Origin: Phage NC-B
Sequence record: MK310183
Reading direction: 5' to 3' (one strand)
DNA length: 64,000 nt
Part shown: positions 4,208 through 49,590 of the stretch, one piece after another
How positions within the stretch are numbered: the stretch's first letter is position 1
Layout of the letters: each line of letters starts with the position of its first letter
Program-made: the position numbers and the translations under genes
Notes under the pieces: generated by a model
Seen by the model: the letters and a program-made list of their open reading frames with translations, nothing else
The model's database searches: none
What the model was told of the DNA's origin: nothing

Positions 4208-4216
4208 GGAGGAACT

Positions 4217-26441: not shown

Positions 26442-28286
26442 TTAGTGAGTGTGATTCCAGTTTAACCCAATCTTACAGTCAGATGCCAGAGGGCATTCCA
26501 TTTTGAGATACTCACCTGCTTTACGAACACACTCTTCAGTGAGGGTACGAAGTTTGTTAACATCGTCACGATGTACAGTGAACTGGCCTTCATCATGCAT
26601 GTCAATAACCTTCGCACAACGAACACCATCACGCTCAATCCATTTATTAAGGAATAGCATTGCATACTTCATAACAATCGCCCCAGCGCTCTGTAAGAGA
26701 GTATTTAAGGCTTTATGAACCATAACCTTTCCAGTTGCATCTCTTCTCATTGTAATACGACGTCCATCCACACCGTAGATGTATCCACTTTGTGCTTTCT
26801 CTGTCATACGTTCAATAAGAATTGCAATACAAGGATTCTCTGCTAAGAATCTTGCCCTCATGACAGCTCCTTCATCAGAGCCACCGCCTACGATGCTTCC
26901 TAACTTAGCGTCACCAGCTCCGTAGTTGAATGCGTAGATAAATGTTTTAGCATTATCACGAGTAGGAAGGCCAGCAAGTTTTTGGTTATGTGAGTGAATA
27001 TCTCCTTCTAAAAGAATATCTCTGTACATAACAGCAGAAGCTAGACCGCGTTCAGCTTCTCGTTTCTTAGCCGGGTTGTTTTCTCGCTCTGCTTCAGCGA
27101 GCATCTCACGACATTCTTTAATAAGGTAGTGAGCTAGCATCCTCAGCTCAAGACCAGAGCCATCGTAACCTAAGAAGATTTCACGACCAGCAGGAACATA
27201 GAACTTATAGGCACCTACAGGTTTGTCTTTCTTGCCCGGTTTTCCCACTTCGTAGATAATGTTAGTACCCTTTCGTACGTAACACCCATCAGGGATATGG
27301 TTGGTAATGATGAAAGGATGGTTATGACTATCGTCTGAGGAATAGTCAGATTGAAAAAGACTGCGGCACTCGTGACCAAACAAACCGCGAGAAGGAATAT
27401 TAACAACAATGCGATGTTTAAAACGAAATGTCGGAGTAGCGCAGCTATTAGCTTCGGCGGACAACTTACCATCTTTACGTTCCTTGTCGATAAGCCCGCT
27501 AATCAAACCTAGCCTGTGAGCCGCTACAACGCGTCTCTTAAGCAAACTTCCTACACCCCCTAGCTCACCCCCAAGCCCTTCTTCAAGAGTCTCCTCAAGG
27601 TTTGTAGGGGCTGTAGGCCACTTGTTTGATGTAGCCAAAGCTTTTTTGATTTCATCAAAGGTTACAGGCTTCTTCCTATTAGGGTTAAGACCTAAACCGC
27701 TGACATAAGCTTTCATATAATTGACAGTGTGATAACGGAAGTGCTTATCCAAAAACCTTCGGATATCAGCATCTATCATCTCTGCTGTCTGTTTCTCTTT
27801 AGCGTTACCTCGAATCCAAGCAGAATACCATGCAGAGTATGTACCATACTTCTTCATAGCTTTACGAATTTCAAAAGTATTCCAAGGTTTCTTAGAATAA
27901 TTCCACTCTGGAGGTATAAAACCTTCATCCATCAAGGCTTCTTTAATACGTGCATCTTTTGATGGGTCAAAATCTACATACTCAACGCAAGTAAACGCCC
28001 CACCGATATCTTCTCTTTTAAGACCAACCCTATCGCAATAGAGCTGAGGCCACTTCTGTAAAGCACCTGACTTCTTAAAAGGCTTAGCATAAGTTGAACC
28101 ATCCACCCGCATTTTAGGGAGGAGAGGAATCAGTTCTTTATCAATATTGACAATAATCTCTTTGAGAAGGTGAACAAACCACCGAGCGTTTCTTCTGTTG
28201 AAGTTGACTCCATGCTTCGCTTGTTTTGAGATTATATCAGCGACTGTCATCTCCGTTATGAAAGGTAACTTATCAGGGTTATCCAT
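26442..28286 (-). CDS. DNA polymerase, family A (T7 gp5-like polymerase domain, no exonuclease domain)
   Basis: ATG at 28286 with AAGGAG RBS; motif A GYDGSGLELRMLAHY, motif B PTRDNAKTFIYAFNYGAG, motif C VIDMHDE. Confidence 0.8.
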   Translation of the reverse strand: MDNPDKLPFITEMTVADIISKQAKHGVNFNRRNARWFVHLLKEIIVNIDKELIPLLPKMRVDGSTYAKPFKKSGALQKWPQLYCDRVGLKREDIGGAFTCVEYVDFDPSKDARIKEALMDEGFIPPEWNYSKKPWNTFEIRKAMKKYGTYSAWYSAWIRGNAKEKQTAEMIDADIRRFLDKHFRYHTVNYMKAYVSGLGLNPNRKKPVTFDEIKKALATSNKWPTAPTNLEETLEEGLGGELGGVGSLLKRRVVAAHRLGLISGLIDKERKDGKLSAEANSCATPTFRFKHRIVVNIPSRGLFGHECRSLFQSDYSSDDSHNHPFIITNHIPDGCYVRKGTNIIYEVGKPGKKDKPVGAYKFYVPAGREIFLGYDGSGLELRMLAHYLIKECREMLAEAERENNPAKKREAERGLASAVMYRDILLEGDIHSHNQKLAGLPTRDNAKTFIYAFNYGAGDAKLGSIVGGGSDEGAVMRARFLAENPCIAILIERMTEKAQSGYIYGVDGRRITMRRDATGKVMVHKALNTLLQSAGAIVMKYAMLFLNKWIERDGVRCAKVIDMHDEGQFTVHRDDVNKLRTLTEECVRKAGEYLKMECPLASDCKIGLNWNHTH

Positions 28287-28302
28287 CACCCACTCCTTAT
28301 AG

Positions 28303-29226: not shown

Positions 29227-29541
29227 TCAACTTGAGCTTAAAGCTCCTTTGCGACCGCCTGCTGATTTTCCAGCACGATCTCCACTTTTGCCGCCGTTCG
29301 AGCGATTTCGAGAGACTGATTCAACACGTAAGTTACTTGACGCATTAGAACCTCCCGACTTGATTGATCGTTTGTGTCCAACATCTTTACCTCGGACAGC
29401 AGCTTTTCCATCGCGCTTTTCAACGATGCGACGTGCACGGTGGCGCTGAGCATCTCCGCTCTTGCTACCAACGCCGGTCTCACCCCTTGCGATTGCAGTT
29501 CTTCGTTCTTGTGCATAATCACGTTTCGCCTTATCGGTCAT
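29227..29541 (-). CDS. Highly basic Gly/Ser/Arg/Lys-rich protein (possible nucleic-acid binding)
   Basis: AAGGAG RBS before ATGATG; 104-105 aa; an alternative overlapping frame 29238-29522 also exists. Confidence 0.4.
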   Translation of the reverse strand: MTDKAKRDYAQERRTAIARGETGVGSKSGDAQRHRARRIVEKRDGKAAVRGKDVGHKRSIKSGGSNASSNLRVESVSRNRSNGGKSGDRAGKSAGGRKGALSSS

Positions 29542-29576
29542 CATAACTCCTTAATATATCAGTGTACACTAAGGAG

Positions 29577-29585
29577 TATACATTA
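29577..29585 (-). promoter_or_regulatory. Candidate phage-sigma promoter element TAATGTATA
   Basis: Minus-strand motif ~33 nt upstream of start at 29541-29544. Confidence 0.35.
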
Positions 29586-29588
29586 TGT

Positions 29589-30326
29589 TTATGATTTTTC
29601 AGATTCCATTGCTTTAACAATAGCTTTACAGAAACCTGAACGAACAATATCATCCGATTCGCCATCTACTAGAGCGGCAAATTCAAATAACTGGTGACGG
29701 TAGATGAAATCAGTAGCCCAATCAAGACCGCTCTCACCACGCATGTCGTGCTGGTTAGTGTCCCCCATACAGAACATCTGAGAGGTTTCACCAAGACGTG
29801 TCATGATTGAATATGCTTCATCAGGAGTAGTGTTCTGGAACTCATCAACAATCACGATAGCATCGTTGAACGAGCGACCACGTAGATATTCCAGAGGTAC
29901 GAACTCAATATTACCATTACCTACTTGACATTCGTAGAAACCTTTACCGTAGCGCTGAGTAATAACATCAACGATTGGCATTAGGTATGGTTCAAACTTC
30001 TCACGAAGCCCACCGGGAAGTAATCCAAGACTATTACCCATACCAACAGCAGGTCGGCTTAGGATAATCTTCTCAATCTTCCCACTCTTCAGAGCATCAA
30101 TCACTGTAGAAGTGATTACGAAGGTCTTACCACAACCAGCAGGAGCATCTGTGAATACAACCTGTTTGGTTTTAATTGCATCAAGCAGCTCACTCTGGAA
30201 TTGGTTCTGAGGTACTACCGGCTTAGCAAGAACTACTTCTTCAAATTCCCGCTTTCCTTTCTTGGTGACGAGAGCTTCACGACGTAATTCTCTCCGTGAT
30301 GCTTTCCGAGATTCTCTACGACTCAT
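29589..30326 (-). CDS. phoH: PhoH-like ATPase
   Basis: GGAGGT RBS; Walker A DAPAGCGKT, Walker B IVIVDEFQN, CMGDTNQ motif. Confidence 0.7.
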   Translation of the reverse strand: MSRRESRKASRRELRREALVTKKGKREFEEVVLAKPVVPQNQFQSELLDAIKTKQVVFTDAPAGCGKTFVITSTVIDALKSGKIEKIILSRPAVGMGNSLGLLPGGLREKFEPYLMPIVDVITQRYGKGFYECQVGNGNIEFVPLEYLRGRSFNDAIVIVDEFQNTTPDEAYSIMTRLGETSQMFCMGDTNQHDMRGESGLDWATDFIYRHQLFEFAALVDGESDDIVRSGFCKAIVKAMESEKS

Positions 30327-30504
30327 TTCCTACCTCCGTGTTCTTCATATAAGAAGCTACAGGATTTACACTCTGAGCAATGGATACCTATAACCTTAAT
30401 TTCGACAAACTTCTTATTCTTCCCTTTAGTCGGGGAGCCTTTGGCAAGCTCCCGTATTACTTTCGAGTCCAAATGGAGAAGAGTTGATTCACATTTAAAA
30501 CATT

Positions 30505-30825
30505 TCAGATTGATTTGTCCTTATGTAAACGGTATACTTCAGTAGCCATACAAGCTATACGCTCGTCATGAGGAAGATGCATACCAGTGGAGCCATTCCA
30601 TCCATTGAACTCTGAATCAAAGAATCCGATAGGCTCAGGATACATCTCTTGCAAAGTGGTTAAGTCATCGGCCACTTGTTGCCATTTGTCATCAGACCAG
30701 ATTGGGTCATCCAACCAATAATACAAATAGGAGTGGATAAGCATCTGTGTTCTGTATCGTTTAATCACTTCAGCAGGACTAATCTCGTTTCCGTTACCAG
30801 TCCTAAATGTATTATCGTTGATCAT
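30505..30825 (-). CDS. Small protein resembling NAD-dependent DNA ligase adenylation subdomain Ia
   Basis: HSYLYYWLDDPIWSDDKWQQVADDLTTLQEMYPE parallels LigA N-terminal H.YLY...D.P...D..YD.L...L..LE...PE. Confidence 0.35.
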   Translation of the reverse strand: MINDNTFRTGNGNEISPAEVIKRYRTQMLIHSYLYYWLDDPIWSDDKWQQVADDLTTLQEMYPEPIGFFDSEFNGWNGSTGMHLPHDERIACMATEVYRLHKDKSI

Positions 30826-31020
30826 TTAGATAACCTTGTGCTCGTAGATGCTGGGGTTGAAATAATGCAACCAGTTTATATATTGTTTCTGTTCAAGGTA
30901 GTGTCTGCAATCATGACAAAAAGCATGACCCAAACCTGTTTCCTCGTTCAGCTTGAAGTTGATAAGAAGCTTCTGCTTTTGACAGAAGCTACATGCTTTA
31001 GTGGGCTTCACGTAGTGCAT
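30826..31020 (-). CDS. Putative zinc-ribbon protein
   Basis: Two CxxC pairs (CSFC, CHDC); start ambiguous, track ORF extends to 31134 overlapping thyX. Confidence 0.25.
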   Translation of the reverse strand: MHYVKPTKACSFCQKQKLLINFKLNEETGLGHAFCHDCRHYLEQKQYINWLHYFNPSIYEHKVI

Positions 31021-31648
31021 CCCATGAGATTGGGAAAAGTTTACGAAGCTCTTCATCAACAGTTGATGCGAACACTCGTACTTCATACTGAGCATGGTCT
31101 GACAGCCGCTGACGACATAACTCTGACCAACCATACAAAGAGCCTGTCCACACCCATTCAGTGATCATGCCCTGAGGCAATACAAATCGAGCTTGCTCTG
31201 GAGCAATAAACTTAATTAATTCATCATACGACTCAAGAGCTGTTTCATATGCCCGATTAATCAGAACTAGTGCAGAGTTTTGTGCTCCTGTGGTGAGGAG
31301 ATTCCCCGCACCTGCATGGAGGTCCGAAGGTCTTTCAAAAATCTCTTTAGGGATGAAGAGTTCAACTGCTCCATCTTTATACCGCCGGGACATTTCGTTC
31401 CACGAGAATCCAACTTGATGCTTGCCCAGCTGTCTCGCAATTGCGATTGGCGCTTTGCATCGGAAGCTAATTGTCGGATGACGGAATGGTGTGACATGCT
31501 TTTCTCTGGCAAGGAACTTGATAAGGCGTTCATCTCGTTCATTTAACTCTCCTTCACGAGTAACCCCAAAAGAAACTCGAGCTGCATTAACAACAGATTT
31601 ATCAGAACCCATTGCTTCGATTAGTGTTGCTTGTAATTGTTCATTCAT
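30998..31648 (-). CDS. thyX: Flavin-dependent thymidylate synthase (ThyX-like)
   Basis: AAGGAAGAG RBS; ThyX-type motif RQLGKHQVGFSWNEMSRRY. Confidence 0.6.
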   Translation of the reverse strand: MNEQLQATLIEAMGSDKSVVNAARVSFGVTREGELNERDERLIKFLAREKHVTPFRHPTISFRCKAPIAIARQLGKHQVGFSWNEMSRRYKDGAVELFIPKEIFERPSDLHAGAGNLLTTGAQNSALVLINRAYETALESYDELIKFIAPEQARFVLPQGMITEWVWTGSLYGWSELCRQRLSDHAQYEVRVFASTVDEELRKLFPISWDALREAH

Positions 31649-31662
31649 CCTTGAACTCTTCC

Positions 31663-31878
31663 TTAATAATGAATCTTTTTATAAACCATATTGCTTCCGC
31701 CTTCTGTTTCAATCCCTTTCTGAATTGTAATCTTAGAAGCGCCAGTGTTAGCAATTTTCAAAGCTCGCTTAAATCTGCGAGCCTCTTTCCGTGTGGAGTA
31801 TGTTGAGAAGCTAGGGATTGTACTATCAAAATTAAACCACTTAACTACCCAAAAAGTAATCCAAGGTTTCTTTGCCAT
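31663..31878 (-). CDS. Hypothetical small basic protein (paralog family with 33745-33957 and 33957-34157)
   Basis: 71 aa; shares TRKEARRFK...G and C-terminal ..HY with the two paralogs. Confidence 0.4.
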   Translation of the reverse strand: MAKKPWITFWVVKWFNFDSTIPSFSTYSTRKEARRFKRALKIANTGASKITIQKGIETEGGSNMVYKKIHY

Positions 31879-31879
31879 A

Positions 31880-32155
31880 TTACTTACCTTTCAGAGCCGT
31901 GTCTAAAAATGCACGGAGATTAGATTCAGTTTGCATACCTGACAAGCTGTAGTGAGCACCACTATTCTTATCAGGGACTACAAAGGCTGGGATACTGCGA
32001 ACACCGTATTCAATAGCTCGCTCTCGACCATCACCTTCAGAGATGTTTACCTCTTCAACTTCAACGTTGTAATCAGCCACAACCTTCTTAAACACAGGAG
32101 CCATAGCTGCACACGGAGCACATGAATTACTATAAAACTTAATTACTTTACTCAT
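31880..32155 (-). CDS. Thioredoxin-fold redoxin
   Basis: ATG at 32155 with AAGGA RBS; CAPC active-site motif in FYSNSCAPCAAMAP; 91 aa. Confidence 0.55.
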   Translation of the reverse strand: MSKVIKFYSNSCAPCAAMAPVFKKVVADYNVEVEEVNISEGDGRERAIEYGVRSIPAFVVPDKNSGAHYSLSGMQTESNLRAFLDTALKGK

Positions 32156-32345
32156 TCTATTCCTTGTTAATAAACAGGTTGATATGACGCTGGGTAGCAG
32201 GAACAACAATAAAAGATTTATACTGACCTTTTGCTAAGTCATGAGCAATCTTCTTTGTCTGACCAAGACCCATCACACAGCCACTAACGATAATGGCATG
32301 TGCTTGTAATTCTTCAGGTAGGTTTAGTTTCACTCTTTGGATTCC

Positions 32346-32783: not shown

Positions 32784-33359
32784 TTAGTAAGACACGTCAC
32801 CACTGGAGTGGGACATGTTGCTCTTGACGAAGTAACAGAACTTGCCAAGACCTTCATTAATTTCTTGAAGCATACTCTGATCAACTGGATAGGTGCACAA
32901 GTCTGAATCAAACTCGTCCATCTTCTCAATGATACACATAAGAGTCATGCACATGTCGGAAAGCATACCGTCCATGTCGAGATCAGCGTTACCTTCTCGG
33001 AACCAAGCATGACCTAAATAGTTACTAGCAGTAGCATCCACTTTAACACAGTGAAAGCGCATACGCTCTGCTATTCGGTCGCCTGCCTCACGAGCATAAT
33101 CTTCTAGTTCATCGAACATACCATGAACACCTTGGAAACCAGCTCCAGAGACGTTCCAGTGGTAGTTCTTTGCTTTGATGTGTAGAAGTTCAAGGTTAGC
33201 TTGCACACCACACAAGATGTGTTCTAAGCTGTTACCACTAATCAGTTTATTCATTCCCTCAAGACGAGAAATAGAAGAGTCAGTAGTAGAGAATGGGTTG
33301 CTAGGACCCACTCTTGTTAGCTCTGGTAAATCGAAGACATTATTATGCATTAGGTGCAT
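32784..33359 (-). CDS. dps: Dps/ferritin-like protein
   Basis: Motif KNYHWNVSGAGFQGVHGMFDELEDYAREAGDRIAERM matches Dps ferroxidase-site region; start may be ATG at 33350. Confidence 0.5.
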   Translation of the reverse strand: MHLMHNNVFDLPELTRVGPSNPFSTTDSSISRLEGMNKLISGNSLEHILCGVQANLELLHIKAKNYHWNVSGAGFQGVHGMFDELEDYAREAGDRIAERMRFHCVKVDATASNYLGHAWFREGNADLDMDGMLSDMCMTLMCIIEKMDEFDSDLCTYPVDQSMLQEINEGLGKFCYFVKSNMSHSSGDVSY

Positions 33360-34172: not shown

Positions 34173-34706
34173 TTAGACACCCTTAGAAGCAACTACACCT
34201 TCGCTACCATTATAGCGACCCTTAACTGCATAGGAATGTTCACCAGCATGTGAATGCTCAAACATCACCATCTGACCAACACGCATACCAGCACGAACTC
34301 GTAAGCTGTGGTGCTTGGTTACGTTATGAAATTCGAATGTCAGCTTGCTGTTGTTAAACCCAGCGTCTGCCCAACCAGCATGTAAATGGTTCAGGCCACA
34401 ACGAGCCATCGAAGATCGCAAAACAAACAAACTGGAGATGTTATCTGGAAGGTTGAACTCTTCCATTGAGTGAGCCAAGAAGAATTGTCCCGGAGTGATG
34501 ATAATACCATCTTCAGGGATTTTTACTTCTTTCCACTTGAGGTTTTCTTTAGCATCAATGTCAACAATACCATCAGCCTGTTCTTCAACAAGGATAGTAT
34601 CACCAATGCGGATATCCACGCTAGCAGCGTTAACATATTTATGCTCCGCATCTAAAAAGCCATTATCAATAACGCTGTGTAATTCTTGAGAACCTAAAAG
34701 ACTCAT
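34173..34706 (-). CDS. dcd: dCTP deaminase / dUTPase-family enzyme
   Basis: Motifs ASVDIRIGD and GWADAGF consistent with dCTP deaminase family; ATGA overlap with upstream gene. Confidence 0.55.
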   Translation of the reverse strand: MSLLGSQELHSVIDNGFLDAEHKYVNAASVDIRIGDTILVEEQADGIVDIDAKENLKWKEVKIPEDGIIITPGQFFLAHSMEEFNLPDNISSLFVLRSSMARCGLNHLHAGWADAGFNNSKLTFEFHNVTKHHSLRVRAGMRVGQMVMFEHSHAGEHSYAVKGRYNGSEGVVASKGV

Positions 34707-36148
34707 GAGTTTCTGTTTCCTTGTACGGATGATGCCAAATTATTAATCATGTTGCGAGCTGTTTCACGAGATAGTGTAACACCTGCTAAGTTGTTACGAA
34801 GCTCACCAGATAGTTCACGAGCAGTAGCTCGAAGTTCTGCACCAAGTGCAGTGTCAGAGTGAGCCAGACCGTTACGACGACCAACAGGTCGAGGAGCTTC
34901 GTTAGCGTCATTAGCTAATGATGCAAAACCAATATGAGCAGCTTCACGAGCCGCTATAGCTGATACTCGATCTTCTGTAGGGGTTGGTAAATCACCAACG
35001 TCTACACGTTCGATATCACTAGCACGAATTCCACCAACAACAGATCTTACTGTTTCCCATGAACGACGAGAACGCTGCAAATCATCCATTGATGGAGAAG
35101 AAACAGGACGAGCAGTTCCCCCTGAGACATGCCATGTATGGTTGTGGGTGTCCGTCCCGGAAGAGCGTGAACTAACACGTAAGTCACCGGTAAAAGTTTC
35201 ACGAGGTGCCACTGTAGAAGGAGCTGCGAATCTTGCCTGTTGCCAAGAATCACGTCTGTTGGTTCCCGGAGTCCAAGGCTGCGTGATTGCTTCAGCACCT
35301 ATAGTGGTTAATCCGCTAGACCATTCTGTCTGTAGATTAACTTCCTCGTCCAGATAACTACGACCCCTTTCCTGAGGAATGTTTAATATAGTTTCCATCA
35401 TCTTCAGGGTATAATGACGACGCTGATTCTGATATAAATTTACACCAGCCATAGGTCCAACTAAATCACTAATCAGGTGAACTTCTGGCTCACCGAAAGC
35501 TCCCATTGCAAGGTGCATATATTCAGTAGAACTGCTATAAACTGCAACAGTTGCTTCAGGCCACTTCTTGTGAACATACTTCATTTCACGACTAGATACC
35601 ACAGGAATGTCACGAGTGTATGACATTGCAAACAAACCTTCGTTTGACACATACAGATTACCAAGAGTCATAAACCCTTGACAGATCATAGGGAAGCGAC
35701 GGCTTAAAGTGTCCATATCCAAAGGTAGATTAATCATCATCTGGATTTTAACTTGATCAATCTCAATTTCCAGAATCTCTTGGAAAGTGAAAAGCGCTTC
35801 AGCATAAGTTGTCCCGTTAACAGGTTGAACTAGTCGAGATGTTACTTGAAGTCCCTTACTCTCTGTCCAAGACAAGAAGTTGTCGAGGAACAGTGCAGCA
35901 TTGCCTACGTTAGCAGGGCTATTTTCCTGACGAGTGTTCCAACGAAGACCGCCTTGAACTAGGAAGATATCAACATCATTCGGAGTTCTATTTTGGAAGA
36001 ACGTATCACGGATAGCACCACCTGCAATAACAGGATAGATGCCATCAGGGACTACGTTATCTCTGATCAAATTACGAATCAGGTCAAGCCCTACACTGAG
36101 GGCTTCTCCTTCTTGAAGGTTCAATTCAGACAATGGAATCTTAATCAT
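34703..36148 (-). CDS. Pol-beta-superfamily nucleotidyltransferase (CCA-adding enzyme/poly(A) polymerase-like head) with Arg/Ser-rich low-complexity C-terminal half
   Basis: N-terminal VIAGGAIRD...PNDVDIF matches GG.VRD...D.DI head motif of class II tRNA nucleotidyltransferases; 481 aa. Confidence 0.45.
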   Translation of the reverse strand: MIKIPLSELNLQEGEALSVGLDLIRNLIRDNVVPDGIYPVIAGGAIRDTFFQNRTPNDVDIFLVQGGLRWNTRQENSPANVGNAALFLDNFLSWTESKGLQVTSRLVQPVNGTTYAEALFTFQEILEIEIDQVKIQMMINLPLDMDTLSRRFPMICQGFMTLGNLYVSNEGLFAMSYTRDIPVVSSREMKYVHKKWPEATVAVYSSSTEYMHLAMGAFGEPEVHLISDLVGPMAGVNLYQNQRRHYTLKMMETILNIPQERGRSYLDEEVNLQTEWSSGLTTIGAEAITQPWTPGTNRRDSWQQARFAAPSTVAPRETFTGDLRVSSRSSGTDTHNHTWHVSGGTARPVSSPSMDDLQRSRRSWETVRSVVGGIRASDIERVDVGDLPTPTEDRVSAIAAREAAHIGFASLANDANEAPRPVGRRNGLAHSDTALGAELRATARELSGELRNNLAGVTLSRETARNMINNLASSVQGNRNS

Positions 36149-40711: not shown

Positions 40712-41947
40712 TTATAGAGTTACTGCTACTTCGCTACCTTCAACATTGACAGACTCTAACTTGCGAGGGTTATGAATCTGGACTGGATTGACCGGAACGT
40801 TCCAACCACTGCGGTAGAAGTTACGACCATCACAGAACAGGATGACATTGGCAGACATTGCATTCGGTTGCAGGTTGTTGTGGACATGACGGATATTTGC
40901 AATCCAGTAGCCACGAGACAAAGTGTAGCCAGTAGGTGCATTACGAATAGTTTGAGTATTCATCTGACCTTCCAGTTGCATTTCTTCAGGAACCATATCA
41001 ACTGAATCAATCGGCTGTGCTACTTGTCCTTCCAGTGCAAAGTTTTCATCATCAGCACTTTCACTGTCATCAACCAACTCACCATCTCCGTCTTCAATCG
41101 GAGTCTGGTAAACCACTTTATACTGAGGAGTATAGAGAGGGTTCTGAGCTTTAACAAACTCAAGAATGTTATGACGGTAGGTATCCAGAGTTGTACCAGT
41201 CAGGCCCGGTGCTGTATTAACTTCCAGTACCCACGCTTCTTGACCTTTGGTGATAATATCAACTGCACCGAAATCCAGACCCATTGATTCAACAGCTTTC
41301 ACTGCATTGATCAGAGAGGCGTCATTCGGAGCATCTGTGAAGGAGCTTGAGTAAACCCAGCCAGTGTGGTGATTACGAATATCTTCACGATAGTTAGGGT
41401 CTTCGCGATAACCATTGCGACGAATCTTCTTCTGAACATAGGTGATTACACCTTTGAACACATGGACACGCCACTCACGACGTGGGCCTTGAATGCCTTT
41501 AGTGTACAGTTCAGCTCGACCAAGACCATCACCCGGTTCTACAACAACAATGCCCGAACCAGAGTGACCAGTCAGCTCATGGCGCTCATACACAATATTA
41601 CCAGTGTTTGACCACTCTTGAGCAGTCTCTTGAGCATCTGTGTATTCCACAGTTTTAACACCTGCTTGGTCCATCACGCTGAAAGCACGACGTTTGTTCG
41701 CTGCCATATGTAAGGCTGCGGTACGGTTAAGGACGGTTGAAGAACCAAAGAATGATTCAGGATAGCGACGGTTCCCGTAGTTAACAACCACATCACCTTC
41801 ACGAGAACGCCAGCGGCTATTCTCTGAAAGAAGACCCATCACGTTAGCATTGATGCGTTCATCACGGATAGTATCACTGATAGCAGATACTAGAGCGTTA
41901 ACAGAATCAGACGGGCCATACGGAAGAACACGGATACGAGTAGTCAT
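40712..41947 (-). CDS. ATP-grasp fold ligase
   Basis: Motifs EWRVHVFKGVITYV and AWVLEVNTAPGL match ATP-grasp (RimK/glutathione-synthetase-like) signatures; 411 aa. Confidence 0.5.
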   Translation of the reverse strand: MTTRIRVLPYGPSDSVNALVSAISDTIRDERINANVMGLLSENSRWRSREGDVVVNYGNRRYPESFFGSSTVLNRTAALHMAANKRRAFSVMDQAGVKTVEYTDAQETAQEWSNTGNIVYERHELTGHSGSGIVVVEPGDGLGRAELYTKGIQGPRREWRVHVFKGVITYVQKKIRRNGYREDPNYREDIRNHHTGWVYSSSFTDAPNDASLINAVKAVESMGLDFGAVDIITKGQEAWVLEVNTAPGLTGTTLDTYRHNILEFVKAQNPLYTPQYKVVYQTPIEDGDGELVDDSESADDENFALEGQVAQPIDSVDMVPEEMQLEGQMNTQTIRNAPTGYTLSRGYWIANIRHVHNNLQPNAMSANVILFCDGRNFYRSGWNVPVNPVQIHNPRKLESVNVEGSEVAVTL

Positions 41948-41950
41948 TTT

Positions 41951-42172
41951 TTAGATACCTTTTAGTTTAAGAATTTCGTTACGACAGGATTGAATTTTAG
42001 CTTCGATTGCCCAATACTCAGCGAACATTTCGTCTTCTTGGGCATCGCTTGGAGAGTCGATTAAGTTAAAAGCAAACGGATACAGCTTTCGCTGCTCCGT
42101 TACCAGTTGTTGAAGTCGGAGTTGTTGATACTCCAGCATTGTCAGGTGAGGCTTAGCTCCCCTGTTTGACAT
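41951..42172 (-). CDS. Hypothetical protein
   Basis: ATG at 42172 (track start is TTG at 42181); 73 aa. Confidence 0.35.
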   Translation of the reverse strand: MSNRGAKPHLTMLEYQQLRLQQLVTEQRKLYPFAFNLIDSPSDAQEDEMFAEYWAIEAKIQSCRNEILKLKGI

Positions 42173-42386
42173 GAGGCTCAACTTTAATCCCCTTCATTTT
42201 AACATAGTCAGCCAACACGTTATTAATAACGGTTGGAAAAGGGATTTCTACTGGAGAGTCAACCAGCTTCCCAATACCTTCTTGCATCCACTTCTGGATT
42301 GCTCGGAGGTTATCACATCCTGTGCTTGTCATCGGAATACGGCGGGTAGTTACCACGTTATCCAACATCAGTTTACGAACTTCCAT
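42153..42386 (-). CDS. Hypothetical protein
   Basis: AAGAGG RBS, ATG; 77 aa. Confidence 0.4.
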   Translation of the reverse strand: MEVRKLMLDNVVTTRRIPMTSTGCDNLRAIQKWMQEGIGKLVDSPVEIPFPTVINNVLADYVKMKGIKVEPHVKQGS

Positions 42387-42397
42387 AACTATACCTC

Positions 42398-44401
42398 TTA
42401 GTGTTTACCTTTACAGTAATCTGAATTACAGATCACCCTGTTTTCTTTGTTCAGTGAGCAAGTTTCTGCATCACGCCACGGAATTTGTTTATAACAGACT
42501 GCACAAAACCCAATTGAAGTCCAGAGGGCTTTTGTAAACTCAGCTGTTCGTTGTCCATCGTAACTGACAACTGTTTTTCGGAGAGAGGTTGACTTTTCTG
42601 GAAATGTCTCCGCTTTCTCAGCGGGTACCTCCTTTGGGGCATTCTTTGGACCATAAACAGAGATGGCATAGGTATCACCACCACGTTTTTCCAAATACGA
42701 ATTAGGAACATCTGCAAGTGTGATATCCCCTGAACGTTTTGCTGAGCTAACCATTACAATCATACGGCTAAGCATACGTTCATCAACACGAACAGCTACT
42801 TCAGGACGACGTGGGTTGGTTGTGTCCACTGCTTTAGTCCAAATATAACCCTCAGACAGCGTAACATTCTTTACTTTGTCTTTGATTTCTTTGGAGCAGA
42901 TATAACAAACGTCTTCACCACGAAGTTTACTCATTTCGTTGTCAAACTCGAAATCAGTCTTGACTTCACCACAGATAGCACATACACCCAAAGGCACATC
43001 TTCTTCCTCTTCAGAGGTTTTAGATAACGCTTCGAAGCATTCTGGATGCCAGTATGCCTGATAAGCAAACACAGCCTTACGAGCATCTTTCCAGTCAATG
43101 TGCTTATCACAACCACCACAGTCACCATGAGAGTGAGACTCCCAGAACTTACGAGTGACTTCTACACCATTCTTAGTGATGAAGGAGTCCTCTGCATCAA
43201 AAGGGATATCATCATCAAAATCAGCAGTAGTGCTTTGAGGCTCCTTATCTGTAGCATCAACAAACAGCCCTGAAGTTAGTACGAGGCGAATCATACTGTC
43301 CACTTCGGAGATACAAGCAATCGTCCCGCGATATACTACCTTTGGGTTTTCAAGAGCCTTAAGATATTCATCTTTGGCTACGTTGTGAACATCCCCTTCG
43401 ACATACTCTTGGGCTTTATCATCGTAGATGTAACCAACCATCTTACCACGATCTGTGTTGTTATAAGCATGGAACTCGTGAGGAATAATATCCACACGAC
43501 CATCACGACGATAAGGAAGACCACGATCGGCAGCCAGTTTGTTCTGGTCTTCAATCGCTTTACGACGACGAATGTCTCCGCTTGTCACGCCGGGCTTGTC
43601 GTCTTTGTTTCCGTAAATGTCGCTTGTGCTGCTGCTTGATTTGTTTGTCTGTTGGTTCTGATATAGAGAGGAGTTCGAGTAATAGCCGCCCCAGCGACTC
43701 GTTATCGTAAAAACCGGAAGCTTGTGCTCCACCTCTTGAACCAGAGTCATACGACTGTTAGACACATCAAAGATATACTCAGTTCCCACTTTACACTCGA
43801 AGTGGTCATTGATACGGTTCTTATGGGACTTAGAACGCTCTAAAATCCACATAAGCATAGCTTCTTCAGAAGCCCCAAACCAATCTAAACCACAACGGGC
43901 TAGGTGGAAAGGACGCTCATCATTACGGATAATGTGAAGCGTGTTGTCTTTAGCATCATGCCAAATCAAAGTGAATGCACCATCCAGTTTTTGGATAGTC
44001 TCTGCTGCTCCAATGGTGTTAATTGAGTGGCAGATGTTTTCACTATCAACTTCGAAACGTTTACTGTCAGGAAGGAGATCTTGATCTAACAGGGTTCCAT
44101 TATGAACCAGAGTGATATCACCGTGAGTAAATGGGTGAGCGTTTCGAGCATTGACAGCCCCACGAGTGGCATGTCGGCTATGACCAACAATCCACGAAGG
44201 AGGAACTACGTAGTTCGTAAGTCCTTTGGTAATATTCTTATATTCTGTCTGGAGCATAAAAGCGTAAGAAGGAAGAGCTTCTTTGTAAGAGAAGACTTGC
44301 TTTTCACCTTTACGCTGACCAAACACACCAGTTGAGTGCTGTCCACGGAAAACACCAGCATACAGAAGTTGGTTGAAAATATCCAAATCTGTTGAGGTCA
44401 T
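42398..44401 (-). CDS. Ntn-hydrolase / class-II glutamine amidotransferase-like protein with C-terminal Cys-rich zinc-ribbon region
   Basis: N-terminal region has GAT-II-like HSRHATRG...NAHPF...LVHNGTL but begins MTST (no Cys2); C-terminal half has several CxxC pairs; 667 aa. Confidence 0.45.
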   Translation of the reverse strand: MTSTDLDIFNQLLYAGVFRGQHSTGVFGQRKGEKQVFSYKEALPSYAFMLQTEYKNITKGLTNYVVPPSWIVGHSRHATRGAVNARNAHPFTHGDITLVHNGTLLDQDLLPDSKRFEVDSENICHSINTIGAAETIQKLDGAFTLIWHDAKDNTLHIIRNDERPFHLARCGLDWFGASEEAMLMWILERSKSHKNRINDHFECKVGTEYIFDVSNSRMTLVQEVEHKLPVFTITSRWGGYYSNSSLYQNQQTNKSSSSTSDIYGNKDDKPGVTSGDIRRRKAIEDQNKLAADRGLPYRRDGRVDIIPHEFHAYNNTDRGKMVGYIYDDKAQEYVEGDVHNVAKDEYLKALENPKVVYRGTIACISEVDSMIRLVLTSGLFVDATDKEPQSTTADFDDDIPFDAEDSFITKNGVEVTRKFWESHSHGDCGGCDKHIDWKDARKAVFAYQAYWHPECFEALSKTSEEEEDVPLGVCAICGEVKTDFEFDNEMSKLRGEDVCYICSKEIKDKVKNVTLSEGYIWTKAVDTTNPRRPEVAVRVDERMLSRMIVMVSSAKRSGDITLADVPNSYLEKRGGDTYAISVYGPKNAPKEVPAEKAETFPEKSTSLRKTVVSYDGQRTAEFTKALWTSIGFCAVCYKQIPWRDAETCSLNKENRVICNSDYCKGKH

Positions 44402-44508
44402 GTTGCCGCCAGCTAATACGATACCACAAATTTTCTAATCCACCTGAAGGGTAAACCCTTTCATCTAATTAACCTTTAAATGCGCCCTTTATCAGAGCGC
44501 CCATTGTG

Positions 44509-45609
44509 TTACAGCAGTCGTTCTAACTGCATTTCCAGATGATCTGGAATATAACCAGTGACATTATCATCACTACTGCCTGATTCACGCATCAATGCAA
44601 ACATGTGACGAATCTCACCAACCGTTGCGGTTCGTGTATTCTCAATCTGGTTAGAGTAATGAGATAAGATTTCTTCATAGACACGGTTAGCATTACCACG
44701 AACATATCCCAAGAAACCATAGAAGTCATTCATGTCACGAAGATTAATCAAGATTTCTCCATCAGAACCTGTCTGATGTACACGAACTCGACCGACCAAA
44801 GTTACAGATCGCTCACGACAGAACAGAATATCTCGAGCAAGACGATACCCTTCAGTGAGATCACTATCTCTTGGGGTGTAGTCTAGAGGTAGATGTTGAA
44901 TCATAGGAGCGAAGCGCAGCTCATTCAACTTCTCAACATAAGCTTCATTGTCTAAATCTGCATATTCAACAGCCAGTTTCTTGAGAACCAAGAAACGATT
45001 GACCAGATTTAGCAGCTGACTCTTTTTCCACTTCGGCTCTGAGATACGGAACTCAACAGAACCAAACTGAGAGAGAGGTAACAGATTAAGGGAGGTGTAC
45101 TTGTCCCAGCTATTAACAAGAGTACGGAAGAAATCTTCCCCATCTCGGTTGAACGCTGATGAAGCATTCATAACTTGAGCTTGAACAACAGCAAAAGCTG
45201 GGCAGAAGTTACTACGGTAACGATGATATCCAGAACATTTGAACATCATCTTTTCATAGAACGTCCACCCAAGAATAACTTTCTTAAGGATATTACTATC
45301 AGCGTCCCGCATATCCATATGAACGTGAGTGGAGCAGCGCCAAGTTCCCTCGGCTCCAGAATCCTGTACCGCTTCACTCAGATTGTTAATAGCACGAAGT
45401 AATTCTTCACCGTTGTAAGGTCGTGAACAAACTAACTCACAACCATCACGAAGAGAGCCGTCTTCAGTACAAACCCACATATCGACGTCAATGTCAGTCG
45501 TACCTTCAACCTCTAACTCAATACCAACACCACACTGAAAGGCAATACTTGGATGCGGTTCAGATAAGCGAGGGTTACGGTATCCAAAAACTTGTGCTAC
45601 GGTTGTCAT
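44509..45609 (-). CDS. Amidoligase-family (glutamine synthetase-like carboxylate-amine ligase) protein
   Basis: GGTGGA RBS; motifs GIELEVEG and RCSTHVHMD fit the amidoligase pattern; 366 aa. Confidence 0.45.
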   Translation of the reverse strand: MTTVAQVFGYRNPRLSEPHPSIAFQCGVGIELEVEGTTDIDVDMWVCTEDGSLRDGCELVCSRPYNGEELLRAINNLSEAVQDSGAEGTWRCSTHVHMDMRDADSNILKKVILGWTFYEKMMFKCSGYHRYRSNFCPAFAVVQAQVMNASSAFNRDGEDFFRTLVNSWDKYTSLNLLPLSQFGSVEFRISEPKWKKSQLLNLVNRFLVLKKLAVEYADLDNEAYVEKLNELRFAPMIQHLPLDYTPRDSDLTEGYRLARDILFCRERSVTLVGRVRVHQTGSDGEILINLRDMNDFYGFLGYVRGNANRVYEEILSHYSNQIENTRTATVGEIRHMFALMRESGSSDDNVTGYIPDHLEMQLERLL

Positions 45610-46232
45610 AATGATTCCACCAACTCTACATTATATGATGACAGGTCTGAAGAAATATGCTTGAACTTCTCCAGAAGGTTTAAAGATTGACGACCATTGT
45701 CGCCATAACCAGCTTCAAGAAGCACGTTTCCAACGTAAGCCCCTTTGTAATAAACTTTTCCATCGACAGGATTGATATAGATGAAACGAGTAACCAACCC
45801 TTCAAACTCTGGATTAAACAGGTTGTACACCAAATCACCCGGAATCGAACGTCCGAGAGAAGGTGGAGCACCACGAAGTTTATTCCCCATCAAGCCTTTA
45901 GCTCGCTGACGAACAGGGTTAATATGGGTCCAGCTCACCATGTTATTACCATGCTGAAGGTATCCTACATCTGGAGACTCCAGAATGAGGTTGTGATCAA
46001 ACACTGGGATATTACTAACAATCTGACGTTCAAACTGACCTTCAGAGTTTTTAGTCCAGCGTTCCGCCTCAAACACTAAAGACATTTCAGCGTCGTGTGA
46101 GTAGTCGTCGATATCAAAGTTACCTTGCTGACGAACATCAAGCACATATAGAGGGAGGTTTTTACCATCAGGTGATCGCTGAGCAATCCATGTTCCACAA
46201 TAATAGTGTTGAAAATCTCTTAACAGGCTCAC
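45606..46232 (-). CDS. Hypothetical protein in amidoligase cluster
   Basis: GTG start 5 nt after AAGGTGA RBS; ATGA coupling to downstream gene; 208 aa. Confidence 0.45.
   Translation of the reverse strand: MSLLRDFQHYYCGTWIAQRSPDGKNLPLYVLDVRQQGNFDIDDYSHDAEMSLVFEAERWTKNSEGQFERQIVSNIPVFDHNLILESPDVGYLQHGNNMVSWTHINPVRQRAKGLMGNKLRGAPPSLGRSIPGDLVYNLFNPEFEGLVTRFIYINPVDGKVYYKGAYVGNVLLEAGYGDNGRQSLNLLEKFKHISSDLSSYNVELVESL
45625..45633 (-). promoter_or_regulatory. Candidate promoter element (variant TAATGTAGA)
   Basis: Minus-strand TATAATGTAGA ~20 nt upstream of amidoligase ATG. Confidence 0.25.
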
Positions 46233-46241
46233 AATATCACC

Positions 46242-47048
46242 TTATACAATCTGGAGTTTAGAGGAGAATTTATCCGCTTCTTTAACATCGTTACTGTTGA
46301 TGATGTTGTGAAGCTTTTCAATTGGAAGGCGAGAGTGAAGTGACATCAATACTTCTATATCACAACCCTGAACAACCTTATCCACTTGCTCATAAACAAA
46401 CTTGCGAGTGGACTTATCACCAATCCAGAAGTTAGAAAGAGAACGATATTCAATACCGTAATCTTTGTAGCGAATGGCAGAAGCCTTTCCGTACAACTCT
46501 TTACGACGAGTGTCTTTATCCATGATCACAGCTGGCAAGGACAGGAAGTAATCACACAACACACCCAACATCATTTGAGTTTGTCGAGTAATCTCTAAAG
46601 TCCCGGAGACACCAAGGTGCACATGACCCCCAGCAGTACGCAAACCTTTATCAGTTGCGACCGGTGAAGGGTTCTTTTGTCCAGTGAAGGCATTGAAATC
46701 AGGAGTACAACCAAATACAAAGGCTGACGGATGGAAAGATTCAAGCTCTTCTGAAGTGAACACATGAGAGCTAATCCCAAGTGCTGCCTCCATGCCACGT
46801 TCATTGAGAACTTTGTTAGTCAGATCAATACCGCGCTGAATGTTATCATCAAACGCTTCAAACCCTTTCTGTGGGTTAATATCAAACTCGGCCAGAACGT
46901 TGTCTTCTTGAAGACGAACATCAGGAGCCAGATCAATTTTATTATCTTTAGAACAGCCCAGCTTACCAGCCACAGAGGTGATAATACCGGAAGCAGTACG
47001 AACAAACATTTCAGGGTCAGAGCCAATAAGGAAAGCGCGCTTAGTCAT
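46242..47048 (-). CDS. Second amidoligase-like protein
   Basis: ATG at 47048 coupled (ATGACTAA); motifs GSDPEMFV and GGHVHLGV; 268 aa. Confidence 0.4.
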   Translation of the reverse strand: MTKRAFLIGSDPEMFVRTASGIITSVAGKLGCSKDNKIDLAPDVRLQEDNVLAEFDINPQKGFEAFDDNIQRGIDLTNKVLNERGMEAALGISSHVFTSEELESFHPSAFVFGCTPDFNAFTGQKNPSPVATDKGLRTAGGHVHLGVSGTLEITRQTQMMLGVLCDYFLSLPAVIMDKDTRRKELYGKASAIRYKDYGIEYRSLSNFWIGDKSTRKFVYEQVDKVVQGCDIEVLMSLHSRLPIEKLHNIINSNDVKEADKFSSKLQIV

Positions 47049-47991
47049 TGTAATACTCCACGAGTTCATCAAAAAGGGAAACAACACGAGCACCAGCTTC
47101 TTCTGGTGTCATTGAGGAAGGTACTGCTTGCATCAGACGTTCGATAAAACTTCGAACAGTAATTCTGTCCATACGCTGATCTAATACTTCTCGCTTGTGA
47201 CCTGCACAAGTTGACCAGAGACGTAACCACTCACTCATACTCTCATAATGGTCAGGGTCTTGGTCACGACGACGTGCCATACGACGGAGAACTCCATCAT
47301 TATGGTTTCGTACATAACCATCTCGGTTGTCATCAACACCGAATACATTCTGAACCCATACGTTTTCAGAAAATTCATCAGTGGTGCAAATTAATGGCAG
47401 AAATGCAATTGCACTCATGTCGCCATCAAAATAAGTCGCTGCTGACTCATCGGTTGAGTCTACGTCATTACTATAACACCAGCGACCAAAGAAGTTACGA
47501 CTTAAACCAGCTAAGCGTAGAGCTAAACCGATTCGTTGTCGCTTAAGCAACTCTTCCTTGTCTTGTACGCCTTCCTGAAGGAACTCCATTCCATTAAAAT
47601 CACCATCCAAATAGCTACGGATGGTCATTAGTCCAGTAAACACCTTGTCTGCTGGATGGTTTCGAAGGTTCACGGCAATGGAGTTCACCGAAGTGACAGA
47701 GAACATATCTTTATAGCAAGACATTGAGTTAAAAATATCTGTTGCTTCAACTAAAGCTCTTTCGATATCTTTAGCTGGCACGCCATAAAAATTGTGAGGC
47801 CAGAAGTTAATAACTTCAATTTCTGAAGTTCTATCACGAAGGCTTGTTCGGTTACGACTTTCACCGTTAATGTCTGTAACAGAATACATGTGCATGCAGT
47901 TAAAAGTACCAAAGCAAGCTCTTCCTTTGAACACTGACTCACCGAAATCCTCTGCCGGTGTTACCGGAGCAATCGATGCGGAGATTGACAT
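47041..47991 (-). CDS. Hypothetical protein in amidoligase cluster
   Basis: AGAGG RBS, ATG; 316 aa. Confidence 0.5.
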   Translation of the reverse strand: MSISASIAPVTPAEDFGESVFKGRACFGTFNCMHMYSVTDINGESRNRTSLRDRTSEIEVINFWPHNFYGVPAKDIERALVEATDIFNSMSCYKDMFSVTSVNSIAVNLRNHPADKVFTGLMTIRSYLDGDFNGMEFLQEGVQDKEELLKRQRIGLALRLAGLSRNFFGRWCYSNDVDSTDESAATYFDGDMSAIAFLPLICTTDEFSENVWVQNVFGVDDNRDGYVRNHNDGVLRRMARRRDQDPDHYESMSEWLRLWSTCAGHKREVLDQRMDRITVRSFIERLMQAVPSSMTPEEAGARVVSLFDELVEYYND

Positions 47992-47999
47992 ATTCGCCT

Positions 48000-49217
48000 C
48001 TATTTATTAAAGAATAGTTTTTCCATAATGGTTTCCCACTCTTCTGAGGGGAGGGTTGAGAACCCGTTTCCGTGAAGCCTGTTTGTCATGCAACTAATAA
48101 TATTGTACATGTTGTAGCTTCGGGTGGATTCTGTTCCATTGTTCCAGTTATAACCGAAAACAATTTTATCGAAGGAGGTTTTATCCGTAGTTACTTCTCG
48201 GATAAACTCAACCAAGAGCGATTTCTCTGTGATGACCGCACGTTCACCATCTGGCAGATTGCAATACTGAGGAAGAAGGATTGGTAAGAACATCGAATTG
48301 TTCACTCGACAATCACGAACACCTTCACTGCGATAGATTAGGCTTGAGAAGTCTTCATCACGCAGGTGTCCTTCACCTTCAGTGTATTCACACTGTCGCC
48401 ACTTGGTCTGGCGAGGCTCAATCATTGTACTACCAACGCCTACTGTATACAGAGACGCTTGGAAAATACATGAATCGTAATCATTCCCCGTTAAAGCAAC
48501 TTGCTCGTTGCCGAACACATCCACTGAAGAGTTAATCAGTCGGCTGAATGCAAGAGAGGCTAAAGGGGACCAGCCTTTCTTATACATCTTGTTCAGCATT
48601 TCATACACAGCAGATTTTTCATCATCTGTATAGAATGTACGATTCAGCATCAGATAGAACAGAGCGCGATCAGCAGGACAACCATCAGTACAAACACCCA
48701 TGAATCCTACTTCATGCCATACCAGACATGAGTCAGAATCTTTATCCATGAATGCTTCAAAGGCTTCCATTACAGCCCTGTCAGTAACATCAGGACGGTT
48801 GTTTTCTTCTGCCCATGTTTCTACATGAGAAGGAGGACGAGGGTCTCCATTCTCCACCCCTTCGCGGAAATATTGAGTGGTAATAGGCTTTTTATCACCA
48901 TAACGTTTTACACCATAAGCGGGAAGGTGTGTACCAGAGTTCCAGATGTACTTAATTTCGGACATAGGCATCATGTTTTCGAGAACGTTCTCTTCAGCAG
49001 TGCCTTGACGAACCATCATATTTTCACTCCACACCTTAATGCGGATATTCCAGCCGTAGTTGCTGTCGTATGTGCAGTAGTAGTCAGGATCACCGTCTTC
49101 ATCTTCACCATAATCACCACCCTGATAGTAACCCGCTTTCAGGAAACCATAACAAGGAGGCCAAACAGTTACAACGTCTTCTGATTCTTTCCAGCTTTGA
49201 AGTGTTACAGGGAACAT
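48000..49217 (-). CDS. Hypothetical protein in amidoligase cluster
   Basis: ATG at 49217 with AAAGAGG RBS (track start 49316 overlaps upstream gene); 405 aa. Confidence 0.5.
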   Translation of the reverse strand: MFPVTLQSWKESEDVVTVWPPCYGFLKAGYYQGGDYGEDEDGDPDYYCTYDSNYGWNIRIKVWSENMMVRQGTAEENVLENMMPMSEIKYIWNSGTHLPAYGVKRYGDKKPITTQYFREGVENGDPRPPSHVETWAEENNRPDVTDRAVMEAFEAFMDKDSDSCLVWHEVGFMGVCTDGCPADRALFYLMLNRTFYTDDEKSAVYEMLNKMYKKGWSPLASLAFSRLINSSVDVFGNEQVALTGNDYDSCIFQASLYTVGVGSTMIEPRQTKWRQCEYTEGEGHLRDEDFSSLIYRSEGVRDCRVNNSMFLPILLPQYCNLPDGERAVITEKSLLVEFIREVTTDKTSFDKIVFGYNWNNGTESTRSYNMYNIISCMTNRLHGNGFSTLPSEEWETIMEKLFFNK

Positions 49218-49227
49218 TTTTACCTCT

Positions 49228-49590
49228 TTACTCTGATACCAGAAGGCCCAGAGATTTGCGAATGTAGTCAATACTACGGAAGTTTCGATAGTTCTCTTGG
49301 AAGCGCATCTTTTCAAACTCTGCTTCCTGAAGCTCTACCTCTGCTGCTTTATATCCCGATAAAGCTAAACTCACCACATCCTGAGGCAAGACATTACGAC
49401 GACGAATAAGATATTTATTCGCTTTTAATTTACCTTGTGCACGAGCCATTTTGGCCTTTGCCGCCTTGATTCCATGAGAAATCCAAAGCAGTTGCTGCTT
49501 CAGGTCTTCCTCGTCCATACCACCTAAATCGTTTGCTACTTTATGCAGCGTAGACAGGTTTACATGGCCTTTAATGGGGCGTAGGTTCAT
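49228..49590 (-). CDS. Hypothetical protein
   Basis: ATG start; 120 aa basic helical protein. Confidence 0.45.
   Translation of the reverse strand: MNLRPIKGHVNLSTLHKVANDLGGMDEEDLKQQLLWISHGIKAAKAKMARAQGKLKANKYLIRRRNVLPQDVVSLALSGYKAAEVELQEAEFEKMRFQENYRNFRSIDYIRKSLGLLVSE

Follow-up and report, generated by a model that had tools for sequence, protein, structure and literature searches.

What would a phage that encodes no DNA ligase do with the part of a ligase that recognizes NAD+? In bacterial LigA, NAD+ specificity is conferred by an alpha-helical N-terminal domain, Nlig-Ia (domain Ia). The window, that is the whole 64,000-nucleotide stretch of Phage NC-B analysed here (sequence record MK310183), contains a short ORF that a preliminary description, made from the letters alone, compared with this NMN-binding domain. 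The 106-aa ORF is indeed present at positions 30505..30825; its strand, which had not been given, is the minus strand. It is a complete, stand-alone Nlig-Ia gene in the ORF list, with its ATG at 30825-30823 and its stop codon at 30507-30505, and the motif on which the comparison was based, HSYLYYWLDDPIWSDDKWQQVADDLTTLQEMYPE, is an exact match to residues 31-64 of the 106-aa protein.

We looked at whether this ORF has the properties of a gene. Direct reading of the sequence revealed a Shine-Dalgarno-like AAGG on the minus strand (30834..30837), 8 nt upstream of the ATG, and the TAA stop of the small ORF located upstream (30826-30828) abuts the Nlig-Ia start codon. The gene is thus read as part of a single minus-strand operon. 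In the order of transcription, the array comprises thioredoxin, ThyX (30998-31648, minus strand), a small Cys-rich ORF, Nlig-Ia, a 49-aa ORF, PhoH (29589-30326, minus strand) and, further on, DNA polymerase A (26442-28289, minus strand); the segment from ThyX to PhoH is the one assigned to the operon. A consensus scan found no promoter-like or terminator-like site on the minus strand between ThyX and PhoH, and the sites of these kinds that it reported within 30500-30900 are all on the plus strand. At the codon level, the gene differs from its ECBP2 orthologue by 12 synonymous and 4 non-synonymous changes, and from its Bas87 orthologue by 10 synonymous and 2 non-synonymous changes; the gene is under purifying selection. 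Homologues form 92 clusters at 90% identity. Taken together, the ribosome-binding site, the abutting stop codon, the synonymous codon differences and the homologous clusters establish that 30505-30825 is a real gene and not a chance ORF.

The closest relatives of this region are found among the Gordonclarkvirinae, E. coli prolate podoviruses of about 76-77 kb that make up the phiEco32/ECBP2 group. A 2.8-kb segment of the window (29500-32300) is 92-97% identical to phages 4E8, vB_EcoP-101114UKE3, IME267 and ECBP2 and to the BASEL phages Bas87/Bas88. The orthologues of the protein are ECBP2_0056, Bas87_0052 and 4E8 g058c, the first of which is 96% identical (102/106), syntenic and in the same orientation. 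The PhoH...ThyX interval of ECBP2 holds one gene more than that of the window. ECBP2_0056 is also the exemplar chosen in the comparative-genomics survey of Iyer, Burroughs, Anantharaman & Aravind (Viruses 2022;14:1977; PMC9503650, section 3.5.1), in which solo Nlig-Ia proteins were described in 81 phages. The gene of the window belongs to the same family, occupies the same position between PhoH and ThyX and likewise sits in a phage devoid of ligase, and nothing essential distinguishes the two. The finding is therefore a re-discovery of a family that is already published and curated in Pfam, and the hypotheses of NAD or NMN binding and of host LigA modulation, both raised in the preliminary description, already stand in that survey (PMC9503650). 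What is new here concerns residues W48 and Q49, a C-terminal loop, the size of the family, its association with replication modules, and its fusions to a helicase, to tandem copies of itself and to a Zn-ribbon.

The proposed likeness to LigA domain Ia was borne out by every type of comparison that we made. The protein matches the Pfam family PF22745, entitled 'Nlig-Ia: DNA ligase-like, N-terminal NAD+-binding domain', with a score of 114.4 bits (gathering cut-off 27; E 3.9e-33), and the alignment pairs aa 16-103 with positions 1-91 of the 92 of the model. PF22745 is also pre-annotated on authentic LigA N-termini, meaning that the Pfam family covers both embedded and solo forms. The protein likewise matches PHROG 6466, labelled 'DNA ligase', at 2.9e-37, and the NCBIfam LigA equivalogs detect the extreme N-terminus only, with 15.7 bits for a cut-off of 444. 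We then turned an alignment of 41 homologues (A1) into a profile and compared it with the sequences of the PDB: 24 of the 30 matches listed at E≤1 were LigA chains, each aligned within approximately residues 3-68, which correspond to domain Ia, with a best E of 1.3e-3. In a profile-profile comparison, hhalign paired A1 with a LigA-Ia profile built from 101 LigA N-termini (Prob 97.9%, E 4e-13), so that residues 15-66 of the solo protein correspond to LigA residues 2-53. When the single sequence was used as the query against the PDB, a match to the CST subunit STN1 (E 0.018) was returned. We consider it to be a chance match, since it falls below the LigA matches when the family profile is used and is absent from the fold searches.

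Structure prediction led to the same assignment. The AlphaFold2 model computed with A1 was confident (pLDDT 92.3, pTM 0.84), and the top 26 PDB matches obtained with it in Foldseek were all NAD-dependent ligases (LigA). In full-protein numbering, the model shows long helices at residues 17-36 and 45-61; a short helix and an ordered loop come next, and the C-terminal helix spans 88-104. The first two form a core hairpin (aa 15-66; 30628..30783, minus strand) that is predicted to be superposable on LigA domain Ia and whose homology to LigA Ia residues 2-53 is documented by hhalign, by hmmsearch against the LigA chains of the PDB, by tblastn and by AlphaFold2. Pfam, the profile-PDB and profile-profile comparisons and the predicted fold all lead to one conclusion: the protein is homologous to LigA's NMN-binding domain Ia and stands alone.

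Comparison with the E. coli domain (residues 1-69; PDB 5tt5, 2owo, 1dgs and 1tae for LigA structures) shows which features are common to both and which are not. Beyond the homologous two-helix hairpin, the two share the signature H-x-Y-x-Y-Y...D-x-P...D-x-x-aromatic, which includes the equivalents of E. coli Y22, H23, D32 and Y35. The phage protein differs from LigA in that no nucleotidyltransferase, OB, Zn, HhH or BRCT module is attached to it, and in having Trp and Gln, respectively, in place of E. coli Y35 and D36. The roles of the five LigA residues that contact NMN were reportedly worked out by Sriskanda and Shuman in 2002. From the HMM alignments, their equivalents in the phage protein are Y35 (E. 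coli Y22), Y36 (H23), D45 (D32), W48 (Y35) and Q49 (D36). All 93 close homologues share H31, Y33, Y35, Y36, D45, W48, Q49, A52 and L55, and Y35, Y36, D45 and L55 are kept in 240-241 of 241 members of the wider family. Position 48 is always aromatic in these 241 proteins: 221 have W, 18 have F and 2 have Y. More variation is seen at position 49, where 184 members have Q, 31 have the LigA-like D, and the others have S, T, A or M.

In LigA, domain Ia orients NMN, and the nicotinamide is stacked between two tyrosines (reviewed in PMC7470946). Judging from the alignments, the phage protein retains equivalents of the two aromatic residues that sandwich the nicotinamide in LigA (Y35 and W48), the neighbouring Tyr (Y36) and the Asp that in LigA binds the ribose (D45), and does not retain the second Asp: the acidic equivalent of E. 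coli D36 is absent, its place being taken by Gln49. This is a real difference from LigA; it is not family-defining, since membership of the Pfam family holds. As the position is Gln or variable, the ligand or its mode of binding may differ from that of LigA. For the solo proteins as a group, Iyer et al. had found the key ligand-binding residues to be conserved (PMC9503650).

The second region that sets the protein apart lies downstream of the hairpin. The alignment with LigA ends at LigA residue 53, ahead of the DSPTQRVG linker, and the solo protein continues from there with a loop (F..W.G.TG.HLP) and an extra helix. The loop, F73-x-x-W76-x-G78-x-T80-G81-x-H83-L84-P85 (30571..30609, minus strand), stands out both by its conservation and in the AlphaFold2 model: it is invariant in 93/93 close homologues, nearly invariant in the 241 wider members, which makes it as conserved as the Ia core, and predicted to be ordered (pLDDT about 88-96). 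It is outside the LigA-aligned segment, and profile-profile comparison gave no pairing with LigA residues 54-72. The C-terminal helix (aa 88-104; 30514..30564, minus strand), taken from the AlphaFold2 secondary structure, where its numbers are one lower (87-103), is also outside the segment aligned to LigA Ia. The loop may complete the ligand pocket, perhaps around one or more phosphates, or form a surface for a partner.

These two features, the most invariant block of the protein (F73...H83-L84-P85) being aligned to nothing in LigA and the D36 equivalent not being conserved, are what could be expected if the Ia fold had been re-used as a protein-protein adaptor, or as a binder of some other small molecule, with the ligand-site residues kept for structural reasons. 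This explanation runs up against the residues that contact NMN at the surface (E. coli Y22, H23 or Tyr, D32 and the aromatic at 35), whose invariance across more than 240 divergent solo proteins is hardly explained by maintenance of the fold alone. We thus regard such a re-use as improbable.

We then considered whether the gene could be a ligase, or what is left of one. The preliminary description had stated that the protein lacks the adenylation, OB and BRCT domains and that the window has no full DNA ligase gene, and both statements held. Pfam found no adenylation (PF01653), OB, Zn finger, HhH or BRCT domain in the 106-aa protein. When full-length E. coli LigA (MG1655) was compared by tblastn with the window and with the whole Bas87 genome, only its residues 12-53 gave a match, which in the window falls on the Nlig-Ia ORF (30628-30753). 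No ligase domain of either cofactor type was detected by Pfam in the minus-strand ORFs of at least 150 aa (20 of the 22 covered). A scan of all 34 window ORFs of at least 150 aa for K-x-D-G gave only two incidental matches, one in a 743-aa plus-strand ORF (327-2558) and the other in a glutamine amidotransferase. Nor does the full annotation of Bas87, a close relative, list any other ligase gene. A split ligase, in which a catalytic partner deprived of domain Ia would be encoded elsewhere, was looked for in the window by Pfam, PHROGs (for the ORFs that Pfam left without annotation), the K-x-D-G scan and tblastn, and in Bas87 by tblastn and through its annotation, and no such gene was found. Moreover, none of the 12 other Nlig-Ia neighbourhoods that we inspected contains a DNA-ligase catalytic gene, the sole ligase-type gene among them encoding a T4-type RNA ligase, at a distance of about 2 kb on one contig (L007). 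This agrees with the survey of Iyer et al., in which 80 of the 81 phages with a solo Nlig-Ia had no ligase, with one exception (PMC9503650). A phage without a ligase of its own must rely on the NAD+-dependent LigA of its host.

Despite this, the name 'DNA ligase' or 'NAD-dependent DNA ligase' is given to the solo Ia protein of about 100 aa in many records of Escherichia, Arthrobacter, Clostridium, Erwinia, Enterococcus and Streptococcus phages as well as in PHROG 6466, and the YF01 genome paper lists the gene as a ligase (PMC9965538). These labels are the one argument for a functional DNA ligase or for the decaying remnant of a former phage LigA. A true ligase would require K-x-D-G, OB, HhH and BRCT elements that the protein does not possess, and 106 aa is far too small; a remnant is difficult to reconcile with purifying selection and with solo proteins of about 75-190 aa, carrying their own C-terminal motif, across more than 1,000 clusters. 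A pseudogene fragment or a true ligase is thus effectively excluded, and the labels are mis-annotations. By its sequence, the protein is a member of the Nlig-Ia family and not a DNA ligase.

The family turned out to be large. An HMM scan of 1.84 billion cluster representatives (50% identity) retrieved at least 1,071 at E≤1e-3, of which 593 at E≤1e-10, and the best 150 of the 1,071 representatives are nearly all 75-190 aa long. By tblastn, the domain was found in 224 of 50,697 phage records, including phages of Escherichia, Arthrobacter, Clostridium and Rhodococcus, Erwinia jumbo phages, Streptococcus phage Dp-1 and others.

We examined where the gene lies in these genomes. In the window, Nlig-Ia is co-oriented and tightly packed with the middle-region genes for ThyX, PhoH, DNA polymerase A and a primase-helicase. 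On a contig of a related podovirus, ThyX is followed by Nlig-Ia; on T4-like contigs, Nlig-Ia is near PhoH, gp59 and gp32; and on contig L007 it accompanies ThyX, RNR and dCMP deaminase. Among isolates, the order is RecA, Nlig-Ia, DnaX in Streptococcus phage Dp-1, PolI, an orf, Nlig-Ia in Arthrobacter TforTroy, and NrdD, Nlig-Ia, primase in Clostridium CS42. In Rhodococcus RGL3, PolI comes first, then Nlig-Ia and a deaminase, and in Erwinia Phobos the gene lies between those for thymidylate kinase and synthase. In every lineage inspected, Nlig-Ia is therefore found amid replication, nucleotide-metabolism or small early genes, a distribution that is only suggestive of a functional link. A conserved operon partner was sought in six metagenomic contexts and in six isolate phages, and no fixed neighbour emerged. 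Genes related to NAD salvage or to NADases were not seen nearby, either in the six Pfam-annotated metagenomic contexts or among the Pfam-scanned ORFs of the window.

Some members of the family are fused to other domains. In Rhodococcus phage ReqiPepy6, gp102 (3959-5587 of the analysed piece L016; 542 aa, annotated 'DNA ligase') combines an Nlig-Ia domain (PF22745, E 1.6e-32, aa 16-101) with an SF2 helicase recognizable by its GxGKT, DEQ and QGRIDR motifs and by weak DEAD, ResIII and Helicase_C matches; matches to at least 80% of the fusion exist in nine phage records. The orthologous helicases of four phages (Gordonia, Arthrobacter, Streptomyces and Lactococcus) have no Nlig-Ia domain and no solo copy within 3 kb, and the pattern sought as a sign of gene fission, a solo Nlig-Ia upstream of the orthologous helicase, was consequently not found within that distance in the four phages. 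In ten longer members of the family, Pfam reported no further domain beyond Nlig-Ia. Three other, rare architectures were observed among metagenomic members, none with an informative Pfam domain. One protein of 321 aa (P0180) contains Nlig-Ia repeated two or three times in tandem, with a LigA-like F-D at positions 48-49. Another of 167 aa (P0008), encoded beside ThyX on the related podovirus contig, ends in a CxxC...CxxC Zn-ribbon tail; we compared this tail with the small Cys-rich ORFs that flank the window gene, and the resemblance was unconvincing (E 8.5; E 0.01 over 14 residues). Finally, an uncharacterised stretch of some 190 aa at the C terminus is common to P0172 and P0190.

Could the protein serve replication rather than defence evasion, as an accessory factor acting on host LigA or on the phage replisome? 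An Ia domain supplied in trans might dock on the adenylation domain of LigA, hand over NAD+, or gate a helicase or the replisome according to NAD+ or NMN. The dependence of a ligase-less phage on the NAD+-dependent LigA of the host, a situation common to 80 of the 81 phages mentioned above, speaks for such a role, as do the location of the solo gene in the replication and nucleotide-metabolism modules of unrelated phages and the fusion to an SF2 DNA helicase in ReqiPepy6 gp102. Action in trans on host LigA could keep the sealing of Okazaki fragments going when NAD+ is scarce, an idea to which we give limited credence. On the other hand, modules of this kind hold most of the non-structural genes of phages, so that the association is weakly specific, there is neither a fixed neighbour nor, with the orthologous helicases, an Nlig-Ia domain or nearby solo copy, and host LigA already has its own domain Ia, so that the gain from a second one is not obvious. 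On balance, judged from sequence and gene order, we hold a replication-coupled role to be possible and rather unlikely.

The vicinity of the gene presents several other features, which we report as such. The slot between Nlig-Ia and ThyX (30826-31134, minus strand) is variable: phages 4E8, ECBP2 and Bas87 have there an extra 480-bp gene, similar to ECBP2_0057, which is absent in the window. The ORF annotated at 30826-31134 shares 137 nt with the 3' end of ThyX, and its match to PHROG 15951 is confined to the C-terminal 57 aa; the gene actually present in this interval therefore probably begins near 31020 and encodes a CxxC...CxxC protein about 64 aa long. Upstream of ThyX are genes for a ferritin/Dps-like protein (32784-33359, minus strand; partial match to PF00210) and for a thioredoxin-like protein (31880-32209, minus strand), and the order ferritin-like, thioredoxin, ThyX, Nlig-Ia recurs on a metagenomic contig (L008). 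On another contig, which encodes the solo Nlig-Ia P0036, a protein matching Pfam Tad3 (PF25185) is found about 5.5 kb downstream, as a single case.

Further away, the product of 34703-36148 (minus strand) is 481 aa in length; it contains a nucleotidyltransferase motif of the Pol-beta type (GGAIRD...DVD), and its long C-terminal half is of low complexity. The protein matches PHROG 12715 'nucleotidyltransferase' and no Pfam family or PDB sequence, and its gene is situated between those for dCTP deaminase and for the exonuclease subunit of DNA polymerase. It was considered as a candidate ligase partner and rejected, its G-G-x...D-x-D motif being of the Pol-beta type and not that of a ligase. According to the BASEL paper, the dCTP-deaminase/nucleotidyltransferase locus is conserved across the Gordonclarkvirinae; it may be a DNA-modification system. 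At 40712-49316 (minus strand) lies a phiEco32-type cluster with a RimK-like ATP-grasp protein ('S6 glutaminyl transferase'), a class-II glutamine amidotransferase, an amidoligase_2 and a COOH-NH2 ligase type 2, together with three proteins of 208, 316 and 438 aa that have no Pfam match.

We think it probable that the protein binds NAD+ or NMN, and favour for it a role as a sensor or buffer. Binding would be non-catalytic and directed at free NMN or at the NMN moiety of NAD+; the surface that LigA owes to its adenylation domain would here be provided by the conserved loop and the C-terminal helix. During infection, it could then behave as a small sensor or buffer of nicotinamide nucleotides, in line with the role put forward in 2022 by Iyer et al., namely an NAD+ sensor or shield when the NADase defences of the host fire (PMC9503650). 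We are considerably less confident about which of the downstream roles applies than about the binding of NAD+ or NMN. Several arguments weigh on this reading. In LigA, domain Ia contributes just one half of the pocket for NAD+, and a lone Ia domain might not bind tightly. By our own estimate, a 12-kDa protein cannot stoichiometrically shield a millimolar NAD+ pool. A solo domain devoid of an output module would need a partner to act as a sensor. The difference from LigA at Q49 also counts against the reading, as does the lack of NAD-salvage and NADase-related genes nearby in the contexts and window ORFs scanned with Pfam.

NAD+ is at the centre of the contest between phages and bacteria. Thoeris, DSR and SIR2 systems are among the NADase defences of bacterial hosts, to which phages answer with NAD+-reconstitution pathways. 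The phage proteins of this conflict include the Tad1 and Tad2 sponges and the NARP NAD+-reconstitution pathways. The Nlig-Ia protein, small and presumably made early or in the middle of infection, possibly operates in the same arena as these proteins and as the domains that bind or sense NAD+, SLOG for example, surveyed by Iyer et al. (PMC9503650). It differs from them in that no relationship of sequence or fold was detected (Pfam, PHROG and NCBIfam return ligase Ia only) and in having no enzymatic module. The BASEL paper describes the Gordonclarkvirinae as highly resistant to the defences tested, and the Nlig-Ia gene is unmentioned in it. Our search of the literature on the family turned up the 2022 comparative-genomics paper and genome notes in which the gene goes by the name of ligase, and no binding or genetic experiment on any member.

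The practical point that follows for the family is one of annotation hygiene, as the 'DNA ligase' labels wrongly imply that these phages have a ligase of their own. For the biology of the phages that carry it, a widespread module of about 100 aa derived from the determinant of NAD specificity is an attractive candidate for an NAD+/NMN sensor, a buffer or a factor directed at LigA.
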